From a virus (lineage: Duplodnaviria; Heunggongvirae; Uroviricota; Caudoviricetes): 5,028 nt of DNA. This document shows positions 1 to 5,028 of this stretch, piece after piece (positions within the stretch are counted from its first letter, which is position 1; the number at the start of each line of letters is the position of its first letter). The DNA lies in the IMG/VR virus record IMGVR_UViG_2606217110_000024; one strand, written 5' to 3'. The position numbers were made by a program, and so were the translations under genes. The notes under the pieces were generated by a model. The model saw nothing but the letters and a program-made list of their open reading frames with translations. It had not been told where the DNA came from and made no database searches.

Positions 1-227
1 AAGTCGATATACCGGAAACAACGCGCGGCGCTCTTTACTCATTCGTTTACAACGTGGGTGCTGGCAATTTCAGAACATCGACGCTTCTTCGCAAAATAAA
101 CCAGGGCGATATCAAAGGCGCATGTGATCAGTTACGTCGCTGGACATATGCTGGCGGTAAGCAATGGAAAGGTCTCATGACTCGTCGTGAGATTGAGCGT
201 GAAATCTGTTTGTGGGGTCAGCAATGA
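1..227 (+). CDS. R: Endolysin, T4-type lysozyme (phage 21 R / DLP12 RrrD-like), 3' partial; the 5' end lies upstream of the window
   Basis: Frame 3 is open from the window edge to TGA at 225-227 and translates as [74 protein letters not shown], which matches the C-terminus of the lambdoid T4-lysozyme-family endolysin as I recall it. It is not the lambda R transglycosylase. Its stop overlaps the Rz start as ATGA. Confidence 0.85.
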
Positions 228-685
228 ACAGAGTAACCGCGATTATCTCCGCTCTGGTTATCTGCATCATCGTCTGCCTGTCATGGGCTGTTAATCATTA
301 CCGTGATAACGCCATTACCTATAAAGCCCAGCGCGACAAAAATGCCAAAGAACTGAAGCTGGCGAACGCGGCAATTACTGACATGCAGATGCGTCAGCGT
401 GATGTTGCTGCGCTCGATGCAAAATACACGAAGGAGTTAGCTGATGCGAAAGCTGAAAATAATGCTCTGCGTGATGATGTTGCCGCTGGTCGTCGTCGGT
501 TGCACATCAAAGCAGTCTGTCAGTCAGTGCGTGAAGCCACCACCGCCTCCGGCGTGGATAATGCAGCCTCCCCCCGACTGGCAGACACCGCTGAACAGGA
601 TTATTTCACCCTCAGAGAGAGGCTGATCACTATGCAAAAACAACTGGAAGGAACCCAGAAGTATATTAATGAGCAGTGCAGATAG
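224..685 (+). CDS. Rz: Rz i-spanin (inner-membrane spanin subunit), 153 aa
   Basis: ATG at 224 overlaps the endolysin stop (caATGA). The product [41 protein letters not shown]... has an N-terminal transmembrane helix and coiled-coil periplasmic domain and is near-identical to lambda Rz from memory. The track ORF 212..685 starts at an upstream GTG; ATG 224 is the canonical start. Confidence 0.93.
444..626 (+). CDS. Rz1: Rz1 o-spanin (outer-membrane lipoprotein spanin subunit), 60 aa, embedded entirely within Rz in the +1 frame
   Basis: Product [24 protein letters not shown]...[18 protein letters not shown] has a signal peptide with lipobox VVGC and a proline-rich mature region, matching lambda Rz1. 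The embedded-gene architecture is classic. Confidence 0.9.
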
Positions 686-689
686 AGCT

Positions 690-705
690 GCCCATATCGA
701 TGGGC
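690..705. terminator. Putative hairpin between convergent Rz and bor (GCCCAT-atcg-ATGGGC)
   Basis: A 6-bp perfect inverted repeat with a 4-nt loop lies in the 31-bp gap between the Rz stop (685) and the bor stop (717). There is no clear U-tract on either strand, so terminator function is uncertain. Confidence 0.3.
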
Positions 706-716
706 AACTCATGCAA

Positions 717-1010
717 TTATTGTGAGCAATACACACGCGCTTCCAGCGGAGTATAAATGCCTAAAGTAATAAAACCGAGCAATCCATTTACGAATGTTTG
801 CTGGGTTTCTGTTTTAACAACATTTTCTGCGCCGCCACAAATTTTGGCTGCATCAACAGTTTTCTCCTGTCCAATTCCCGAAACGAAGAAGTGATGGGTG
901 ATGGTTTCCTTTGGTGTTACTGCTGTCGGTTTGTTTCCAACAGTAAACGTCTGTTGAGCACATCCTGTAATAAGCATTGCCAGAGCGGCAGAAAACAACA
1001 TTTTTTTCAT
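717..1010 (-). CDS. bor: Bor lipoprotein (serum-resistance / lysogenic-conversion outer-membrane lipoprotein), 97 aa
   Basis: Minus-strand ORF; the track product contains MKKMLFSAALAMLITGCAQQTFTV...YTPLEARVYCSQ. I place the start at the internal ATG (plus 1008-1010) giving 97 aa, with signal peptide and lipobox LITGC and an AGGATAA-like RBS just upstream. The track's longer 113-aa form (717..1058) starts at an upstream ATG that is probably not used. Matches lambda Bor from memory. Confidence 0.92.
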   Translation of the reverse strand: MKKMLFSAALAMLITGCAQQTFTVGNKPTAVTPKETITHHFFVSGIGQEKTVDAAKICGGAENVVKTETQQTFVNGLLGFITLGIYTPLEARVYCSQ

Positions 1011-1023
1011 CTTATTATCCTGC

Positions 1024-1055
1024 ATTGTTAAAAACGGCAGAATCCTATGTGACAA
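1024..1055 (-). promoter_or_regulatory. Putative bor promoter (minus-strand -35 TTGTCA, about 16-17 bp spacer, weak -10 TTTTAA/TTTAAC)
   Basis: AT-rich region immediately upstream of bor on the minus strand. The hexamers are imperfect and the assignment is by inspection only. Confidence 0.25.
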
Positions 1056-1370
1056 CAATTAAACGATAGTTAAATGGATTGATGAAAATTAAAACTATAT
1101 AGGTGGATGCTCAGCCTATTGGAGGAGGGGGGGCACTCAGAATCCTGTGGAATGAAATAAACCGCTCTATCTGTCCATTACCCTTTTAGCTGCGCTGTAT
1201 CGTCGCCGTATTCCCGCATTAACCATGACCGTAGCCCGACGGGGAATTCCTTCTGCGTGAGTGTGCGGGAATAATCAAAAACGATGCACACCGGGTTTTA
1301 CTGTGCTGACAGACGCAGGGTTACCCTCATAGTCGCTTTTCCGGTGCGATGGTGGAAGAAACCGGGATGT

Positions 1371-1565
1371 TCATCCATCATCACTTTGGATTGATGTATA
1401 TGCTCTCTTTTCTGACGTTAGTCTCCGACGGCAGGCTTCAATGACCCAGGCTGAGAAATTCCCAGACCCTTTTTGCTCAAGAGCGATGTTAATTTGTTCA
1501 ATCATTTGGTTAGGAAAGCGGATGTTGCGGGTTGTTGTTCTGCGGGTTCTGTTCTTCGTTGACAT
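1371..1565 (-). CDS. ylcI: YlcI/YnfO-family small protein (DUF3950), 64 aa, predicted ribbon-helix-helix-like DNA-binding fold
   Basis: Product MSTKNRTRRTTTRNIRFPNQMIEQINIALEQKGSGNFSAWVIEACRRRLTSEKRAYTSIQSDDG has a basic N-terminus, then a strand-helix-G-loop-helix pattern typical of RHH proteins. I recall it as the small ORF found next to cos at the right end of lambda and as YlcI in DLP12. Confidence 0.8.
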   Translation of the reverse strand: MSTKNRTRRTTTRNIRFPNQMIEQINIALEQKGSGNFSAWVIEACRRRLTSEKRAYTSIQSDDG

Positions 1566-1764
1566 GAGGTTGCCCCGTATTCAGTGTCGCTGATTTGTAT
1601 TGTCTGAAGTTGTTTTTACGTTAAGTTGATGCAGATCAATTAATACGATACCTGCGTCATAATTGATTATTTGACGTGGTTTGATGGCGTAGATGCACGT
1701 TGTGACATATAGATGATAATTATTATCATTTTGCGGGTCCTTTCCGGCGATCCGACAGGTTACG

Positions 1765-1776
1765 GGGCGGCGACCT
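1765..1776. other. cosN: cosN, the 12-nt cohesive-end sequence GGGCGGCGACCT (terminase nicking site)
   Basis: Exact lambda cohesive-end 12-mer, preceded by ...CCGACAGGTTACG (lambda right-end terminus) and followed by CGCGGGTTTTCGCTATTTATGAAAATTTTCCGG (lambda left-end start). Confidence 0.92.
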
Positions 1777-1953
1777 CGCGGGTTTTCGCTATTTATGAAA
1801 ATTTTCCGGTTTAAGGCGTTTCCGTTCTTCTTCGTCATAACTTAATGTTTTTATTTAAAATACCCTCTGAAAAGAAAGGAAACGACAGGTGCTGAAAGCG
1901 AGCTTTTTGGCCTCTGTCGTTTCCTTTCTCTGTTTTTGTCCGTGGAATGAACA
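1777..1953. other. cosB: cosB terminase (gpNu1) binding region with R3, IHF site I1, R2, R1
   Basis: Three copies of the Nu1-binding core CGTTTCC: R3 at 1817-1823 (+), R2 at 1878-1884 (inverted, GGAAACG), R1 at 1918-1924 (+). An AT-rich stretch at 1836-1862 (cataacttaatgtttttatttaaaatac) sits between R3 and R2 where the IHF site I1 lies in lambda. Nu1 follows immediately. Confidence 0.85.
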
Positions 1954-2473
1954 ATGGAAGTCAACAAAAAGCAGCTGGCTGACATTTTCGGTGCGAGTAT
2001 CCGTACCATTCAGAACTGGCAGGAACAGGGAATGCCCGTTCTGCGAGGCGGTGGCAAGGGTAATGAGGTGCTTTATGACTCTGCCGCCGTCATAAAATGG
2101 TATGCCGAAAGGGATGCTGAAATTGAGAACGAAAAGCTGCGCCGGGAAGTTGAAGAACTGCGGCAGGCCAGCGAGACAGATCTCCAGCCAGGGACTATTG
2201 AGTACGAACGCCATCGACTTACGCGTGCGCAGGCCGACGCACAGGAGCTGAAAAATGCCAGAGACTCCGCTGAAGTGGTGGAAACCGCATTCTGTACTTT
2301 CGTGCTGTCGCGGATCGCAGGTGAAATTGCCAGTATTCTCGACGGGATCCCCCTGTCGGTGCAGCGGCGTTTTCCGGAACTGGAAAACCGACATGTTGAT
2401 TTCCTGAAACGGGATATCATCAAAGCCATGAACAAAGCAGCCGCGCTGGATGAACTGATACCGGGGTTGCTGA

Positions 2474-2499
<26 letters not shown>
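1954..2499 (+). CDS. Nu1: Terminase small subunit gpNu1, 181 aa
   Basis: Product MEVNKKQLADIFGASIRTIQNWQEQGMPVLRGGGKGNEVLYDSAAVIKWYAERD... has the N-terminal winged-HTH cosB-binding domain and is near-identical to lambda Nu1 from memory. Its 3' end overlaps A by 26 nt, as in lambda. Confidence 0.97.

Positions 2500-5028
<2,529 letters not shown>

Follow-up and report, generated by a model that had tools for sequence, protein, structure and literature searches.

The window analysed here, a stretch of 5,028 bp that makes up the entire contig JNMR01000097.1 of draft assembly GCA_000700445.1, carries between its lysis genes and the terminase gene Nu1 a run of sequence resembling the two ends of lambda DNA joined to each other. 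Two questions arise: whether this interval (positions 1730-1953) is the cos site of a resident prophage, and whether a one-base irregularity in a hairpin of the cosB region marks this copy as damaged.

Alignment with the joined ends of lambda

Positions 1-3500 and 45400-48502 of lambda (NC_001416) were taken, the right end was joined to the left end, and the product was aligned with the window, gaps being allowed. Window positions 1354-4757 matched lambda 48092..48502 joined to 1..2994 as one piece (3,405 columns, 98.2% identity, 59 mismatches, 1 gap; E = 0), which is far beyond chance. Lambda 48502 falls at window 1764 and lambda 1 at 1765, and the alignment runs unbroken through the junction, bearing out the proposal of an earlier note that a complete cos lies inside contiguous DNA at this location. 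In this alignment, the 12-mer GGGCGGCGACCT is intact and R3, R2 and R1 follow one another in lambda order. With the 12-mer at 1765-1776, the nicks would be made at 1764/1765 and 1776/1777; these are the positions originally claimed, and they match the lambda alignment base by base.

Three differences from NC_001416 are found within 1730-1953: a G for an A at 1733 (lambda 48471), a C for a T at 1748 (lambda 48486), and the absence of one G of the pair G138/G139 (window 1902). The missing G, in the R2-R1 spacer, is the sole difference between cosN and the Nu1 ATG, R1 included. Upstream of cosN, the window departs from lambda by five substitutions, at lambda 48447, 48459, 48467, 48471 and 48486. 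Subsites, order and orientation are otherwise those of NC_001416 48446..48502 + 1..182, and Nu1 lies at the same distance, its start codon (lambda bp 191) being at window 1954. Positions 1708-1945 correspond to lambda 48446-182, a 238-bp fragment that has been used experimentally as a complete cos (PMC4856287). We consider it very likely that interval 1730-1953 is the cos of a lambda-type lambdoid prophage (with a complex cosB) in an Escherichia chromosome, placed between a lysis/bor/ylcI region and Nu1-A. The feature is the textbook lambda cos in its normal prophage position.

Table 1. Features of the 5,028-bp window, in order of position. Lambda coordinates are those of NC_001416.
Feature	Position	Strand	Basis or remark
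T4-type phage lysozyme, 3' end (PF00959)	54-227	+	Gene call and Pfam
Rz	224-685	+	Gene call and Pfam; Rz1 embedded at 444-626
bor/iss	717-1010	-	Gene call and Pfam
DUF3950 (ylcI-like) ORF	1371-1565	-	Gene call and Pfam
85-aa mechanical ORF crossing cosN	1581..1838	-	Not a gene
cosQ, GGGTCCT	1735..1741	+	Equivalent to, and identical with, lambda 48473-48479
cosN, ~22-bp nicking site	1760..1781	.	Identical to lambda 48498-48502 + 1-17
Nicks	1764/1765 (top strand), 1776/1777 (bottom strand)		Predicted from identity to lambda
12-nt cohesive end	1765..1776	+	Lambda bases 1-12, directly after lambda 48502
I2, AT-rich, statically bent cosN-cosB spacer	1782..1814	+	Identical to lambda bp 18-50, no indel
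R3, critical gpNu1 (TerS) binding site	1814..1829	+	Identical to lambda bp 50-65
I1, IHF-binding/bend region between R3 and R2	1838..1855	-	Interval identical to lambda
179-aa shadow ORF antisense to Nu1	1855..2394	-	Not a gene
R2, gpNu1 binding site, inverted relative to R3/R1	1873..1888	-	Lambda bp 109-124
Imperfect inverted repeat in R2-R1 spacer	1900..1914	+	One G fewer than NC_001416
R1, accessory gpNu1 binding site	1914..1929	+	Lambda bp 151-166
Nu1, terminase small subunit, 181 aa	1954-2499	+	PF07471, E = 3.9e-101
A, terminase large subunit, 641 aa	2474-4399	+	PF05876 and PF20454
W, head-tail adaptor	4396-4602	+	Identical to lambda
Portal gene B, 5' stub of ~53 codons, then out of frame into IS	4599-4757	+	
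72-aa ORF beginning as portal protein B	4599-4817	+	
IS21-like element end interrupting B, with istB 3' end on the minus strand	4754..5028	-	
IS21-type istB, 3' end	4814-5028	-	Gene call; PF01695 IstB_IS21

The elements that define a lambda-type complex cos are all present: cohesive end, cosQ, I2, R3-R2-R1, I1 and adjacent terminase genes (Table 1). Positions 1734-1747 (lambda 48472-48485), within which cosQ lies, are identical to lambda and leave its spacing to cosN unchanged. The exact 7-bp extent assigned to cosQ is the one reportedly defined by Wieczorek & Feiss 2001. The cosQ sequence is nearly invariant among 66 natural haplotypes (see below); its role is in packaging termination (PMC4669245, PMC4856287). 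For cosN, a size of ~22 bp was adopted (PMC4856287), its placement being our own, obtained by centring on the 12-mer. The extent and essential role of I2 follow published work (PMC4856287), as do the coordinates of R3 (lambda bp 50-65; PMC9026076) and the accessory role of R1 (PMC4669245).

A repeat finder used with no prior knowledge recovered R3 (CGTTTCCGTTCT, 1817-1828) and R1 (CGTTTCCTTTCT, 1918-1929) as direct repeats and R2 (1873-1888) as an inverted one. R2 on the minus strand and R1 on the plus strand (1914-1929) share the identical 16-mer CTGTCGTTTCCTTTCT, and one identical 16-mer is likewise carried by R2 and R1 in lambda (PMC9026076). In lambda, I1 is located between R3 and R2 (PMC4669245, PMC4856287). 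The IHF consensus WATCAANNNNTTR has two overlapping minus-strand matches at 1838-1855, with 1 and 2 mismatches; such matches are weak by themselves against a background of ~9/kb, and I1 was called because the interval is identical to lambda. Two further repeats, both also present in lambda, were seen in this region. The exact 8-mer CGACAGGT occurs at 1753-1760, just left of cosN, and at 1883-1890, inside R2; the left copy may be the historical "R4" half-match. A 17-nt direct repeat of 71% identity (1745-1761 and 1768-1784) flanks the top-strand nick.

Two plaque-forming lambdoid phages, Turner (PP925837) and PhiR11_1 (PV340547), give collinear, gap-free alignments with window 1-4757, lysozyme gene through B, at 99.0% and 98.8% identity, respectively. 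They were obtained independently, Turner from surface scum on flowing water and PhiR11_1 with K-12 MG1655 as its listed host. Between 892 and 2147, the only position at which the window differs from either is 1709 (A versus G in both phages); interval 1730-1953 is therefore 100% identical to that of two phages that form plaques.

Natural variation was examined by comparing 66 distinct haplotypes from three sources: IMG/VR contigs, contigs of species-representative genomes, and phage records. Wherever these haplotypes vary within 1710-1953, the window has the majority allele. Because the haplotypes were retrieved by an exact match to a pattern spanning 1893-1918, part of the conservation seen in the R2-R1 spacer of this set reflects ascertainment. 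The A at 1709 (lambda 48447), 26 bp upstream of cosQ and outside any defined subsite, is rare: 2 of the 66 haplotypes have it, and 63 have G.

Both terminase proteins are intact and at least 98.9% identical to those of lambda. Nu1 recognises cosB, while gpA nicks cosN as an endonuclease and also acts as the packaging ATPase. Nu1 differs from its lambda counterpart only by A75T and L132I, both outside the recognition helix (residues 17-24) and the wing (residues 31-39; PMC9026076), and residues 1-74 are identical. The gpA protein differs by T151S and I459V, the other 29 of 31 nucleotide differences being silent.

The R2-R1 spacer and the reference base

The earlier note had described the stem of the spacer hairpin as imperfect by one base and had given GAGGC as the lambda sequence. 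Alignment to NC_001416 confirmed both statements: positions 1900-1914 read GAGC-TTTTTG-GCCTC, versus GAGGC-TTTTTG-GCCTC in the reference, and the R2-R1 spacer measures 25 bp in the window versus 26 bp in NC_001416. Folded as single-stranded DNA, the window allele gave -1.3 kcal/mol, no better than shuffled sequences, and the reference allele -5.5 kcal/mol. When either allele was folded, the dominant symmetric feature was the R2/R1 inverted repeat. The possibility that the hairpin acts as an intrinsic terminator or as a structural element of cos was considered and set aside: a terminator scan found none at this position, folding of the window allele was at the level of shuffles, and the reviews consulted name no such subsite.

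The distribution of the two forms identifies the odd one. A 70-mer of the window was matched at 99% identity or above in 1,333 E. coli records and the corresponding 71-mer of the reference in a single one, which is not among the top full-length matches. A scan with a pattern permitting both forms returned the single G for 119 of the 120 IMG/VR contigs and for all 21 genome contigs. In the phage collection, again at 99% or above, 42 records have the single-G form and 6 the GG form, the latter being J02459, NC_001416, the derivative O276 (twice), OR474059 and OR974322. Exact full-length matches to the single-G form include records of lambda itself (KT232076, PV340536 and LC730321) as well as lambda imm21, lambda imm434, DE3 and HK629/HK630. 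Lambda-contaminant contigs from Pseudomonas, Oceanobacillus, Neobacillus and a Chromatiales MAG show zero mismatches to NC_001416 over 3,500 bp and exactly one gap, located at G138/G139.

Judged by these records, the single-G form is the prevailing natural allele and NC_001416 the outlier. The extra G at 138/139 in NC_001416 and J02459 probably reflects either an error or a variant particular to one stock, in which case lambda itself would have a 25-bp R2-R1 spacer; by the same comparison, 25 bp appears as the state found in functional lambda-type phages. Since the single G is common in nature and occurs in other lambda records, the hairpin difference is no defect of the window copy. A literature search found no statement that lambda lacks a G at 138/139, and the papers on lambda stocks give four NEB point mutations (37589, 37742, 43082 and 45352) without mention of position 138. 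A vendor note reading "138 delG", which reportedly exists for lambda, found no support in the literature retrieved. Anyone comparing the window only with NC_001416 would mistake this position for a one-base cosB "defect", when it is the reference that carries the rare allele.

Lambda sequence was encountered repeatedly in assemblies of unrelated organisms, either as lambda DNA or as a ~400-bp cos fragment (lambda 48299-199). Examples are found in Kitasatospora, Bradyrhizobium, Pseudomonas (contigs of ~48.4 kb), Raphidiopsis and an Alicyclobacillus "plasmid"; a Leeuwenhoekiella assembly also belongs to the contaminants without mismatches to lambda. Such sequences evidently represent contamination with laboratory lambda or with vector.

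Flanking genes, minus-strand reading frames and the interrupted portal gene

Prophages with the layout of the window are widespread in E. coli. Among 5,426 complete E. coli genomes, 1,973 match the part of the window up to position 4757 at 80% coverage or more, and the chromosomal matches of highest identity (99.6%) lie in prophages of the DLP12 type. The 224-bp interval 1730-1953 is present in 3,985 of the 5,426 genomes, the median number of places in each being two. Strain F8704-2 has its match within a full lambdoid prophage of this type, in the order emrE, ybcK-ybcO, rusA, quuD, a porin gene, essD, rrrD, rzpD, iss, ylcI, nohD and complete head and tail genes. The contention that the arrangement is that of a prophage thus stands: the same contiguous layout recurs in the 1,973 chromosomes, cos is found within an entire prophage in F8704-2, and the IS21-like insertion in the portal gene of the window (see below) fits chromosomal residence.

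Gene order around cos in DLP12-type prophages (essD-rrrD-rzpD-borD/iss-ylcI-cos-nohD) is the same as in the window. The relatives found in complete genomes possess full sets of head and tail genes, whereas the window retains Nu1, A and W with B interrupted. K-12 DLP12 is truncated soon after nohD. The DLP12-side content of the window consists of the rrrD-like lysozyme gene, Rz, bor/iss and ylcI only, with no att site, and its assignment to the DLP12 type is by similarity only.

Several peculiarities of the left half of the window deserve mention. The lysis cassette is mosaic: the lysozyme gene encodes an RrrD-like, T4-type enzyme (PF00959) and has no nucleotide match to lambda R, and over Rz/Rz1 and bor combined the identity to lambda is 94%. 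The bor-to-cos interval (1065-1353) is ~1.1 kb shorter than in lambda, lambda 46975-48091 with p78/ybcV and p79/ybcW being absent; within it, just 1188-1298 still resembles lambda (46865-46974, 82%), and a 37-aa ORF of no family was called at 1178..1291 on the minus strand. This short architecture is common to Turner and PhiR11_1. The DUF3950 ORF just upstream of cos (1371-1565, minus strand) encodes a 64-aa, conserved member of the YlcI/YnfO family; lambda holds a homologous stretch at ~48109-48303, which is unannotated in NC_001416. An Rfam scan of the whole window returned zero matches.

Two minus-strand reading frames overlap the cos region; both exist as mechanical ORFs, and the earlier note had held that they are not genes. 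This was borne out by their pattern of variation and by the absence of Pfam matches and PGAP calls. Of 47 distinct haplotypes, 26 have the 1581..1838 frame interrupted; variable sites in this frame are distributed 22/12/15 over the three codon positions, with 14 synonymous and 37 non-synonymous changes, showing no coding pattern. The 1855..2394 frame is open in most haplotypes, its variation falling mainly on the first codon position (30/9/14), with 10 synonymous and 44 non-synonymous changes; its first codon position is the third position of Nu1. For comparison, Nu1 itself gives 10/7/29, with 31 synonymous and 16 non-synonymous changes. Neither frame has a Pfam match, and in finished genomes PGAP leaves the stretch from ylcI to nohD without any annotated gene. 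ORFs in this region are called, as "hypothetical protein", in some phage records that are circularly permuted and were annotated automatically. The conservation argument against both frames is stronger than the argument that they cross cos elements, and gene callers should omit the 85-aa and 179-aa minus-strand ORFs.

At the other end of the window, identity to lambda B stops at 4757/4758, and matches to other prophages and phages also end at 4757. Matches to insertion sequences start at window 4747-4754, with hundreds of copies annotated as IS21-like IstB; matches of this kind come from 2,951 genomes, and the element is present in thousands of copies. The end of similarity at 4757 and the IS end beyond it indicate that the portal gene is cut after ~53 codons; in Turner and PhiR11_1, by contrast, this gene is intact. 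About 275 bp of the IS21-like element lie within the window, the contig ending inside it, as is usual for draft contigs at repeats, so that istA and the other IS end are outside. A simple insertion into B is what one would expect, a deletion or a rearrangement being the alternatives given a contig that terminates within the IS. The particular B/IS junction is absent from all complete E. coli RefSeq genomes. From the sequence, it is this insertion in B, and not anything in cos, that probably disables the prophage.

E. coli E24377A was examined as a possible second instance of the same B::IS21 insertion and was rejected, as prophage, orientation and position are all different. At NC_009801 2189093-2192793, an IS21-like element of the ISEc62 family, oppositely oriented and inserted elsewhere in the gene, splits the portal gene of a different lambdoid prophage. 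This represents an independent disruption of a portal gene by an IS21-like element.

Alternative readings and use of the site

Three other accounts of the interval were weighed. According to the first, it would be the non-functional cos of a decaying relic, a cryptic prophage comparable to DLP12 or Qin of K-12, too recent for decay to have set in. DLP12 of K-12 is indeed cryptic, the portal gene of the window is disrupted and the closest chromosomal relatives occur in DLP12-type prophage context. However, plaque-forming phages have a cos interval 100% identical to the one in the window, which carries majority alleles throughout; Nu1, A and W retain their full length, and the changes in gpA are almost all silent. 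At the sequence level, cos and terminase are undecayed and B alone has been hit, which makes the relic account improbable. The site is probably competent, while the prophage that contains it is probably defective.

The second account, an assembly artefact or contamination in which the contig would join the linear virion ends of laboratory lambda or of a free phage, is somewhat less probable still. It could draw on the window being a short contig that stands by itself in a draft assembly and on the presence of lambda DNA as a contaminant in many unrelated assemblies. Yet 59 positions distinguish the window from lambda, neither its bor-to-cos interval nor its lysozyme gene is that of lambda, B contains an IS21-like insertion, and the identical junction is found in thousands of finished chromosomes. 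Moreover, intracellular circles and concatemers of phage DNA also carry a joined cos, so a joined cos requires no artefact.

That the site belongs to a phage-inducible chromosomal island (PICI) hijacking a lambda-like terminase is hardly credible, for although such islands in E. coli chromosomes do have a cosQ and a cosN of lambda type (PMC9026076, PMC6739421), their cos has no R sequences or I1 and is followed by rpp (PMC9026076), whereas the window has R3, I1, R2 and R1 identical to lambda, followed by Nu1-A-W-B. The PICIs of Gram-negative bacteria share with the window a cosQ and cosN of lambda type but lack the R repeats, with rpp standing where the window has Nu1. The same two subsites are common to the window and the simple cos of phage N15 (PMC4669245, PMC9026076), in which one R3-type site is present and I1 is lacking, unlike the tripartite cosB seen here.

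If interval 1730-1953 is read as a prophage cos, its mode of action can be sketched from established lambda biology (PMC4669245, PMC4856287, PMC9026076). Once anchored, gpA would nick cosN at two points 12 bp apart, 1764/1765 and 1776/1777. Terminase would then remain on the cosB end and dock on the portal, and DNA would be translocated rightward, the Nu1 end first, until the next cos is cut with the help of cosQ. We infer that the window cos would be cleaved and packaged, because 1730-1953 is 100% identical to the site of phages that form plaques. The prophage, on the other hand, would be unable to package itself: with B interrupted, it would make no proheads of its own, and use of its cos would need a helper or a co-resident lambda-type phage. 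In lambda work, it is standard practice to have a helper package passive prophages that are bounded by two cos sites.

Few DNA sites in biology are as well characterised as the lambda cos, and the window copy is a consensus example of it, of a kind present in most E. coli genomes. It is conceivable, although we regard it as rather unlikely, that a portal-less prophage with a perfect cos and an intact Nu1/A pair might serve as a chromosomal packaging-initiation site for the proheads of a lambda-type phage, whether co-resident or infecting, resulting in helper-dependent mobilisation. If this were so, and if cos were cut in situ, packaging would proceed unidirectionally into the DNA rightward of cos, in a manner resembling lateral transduction.
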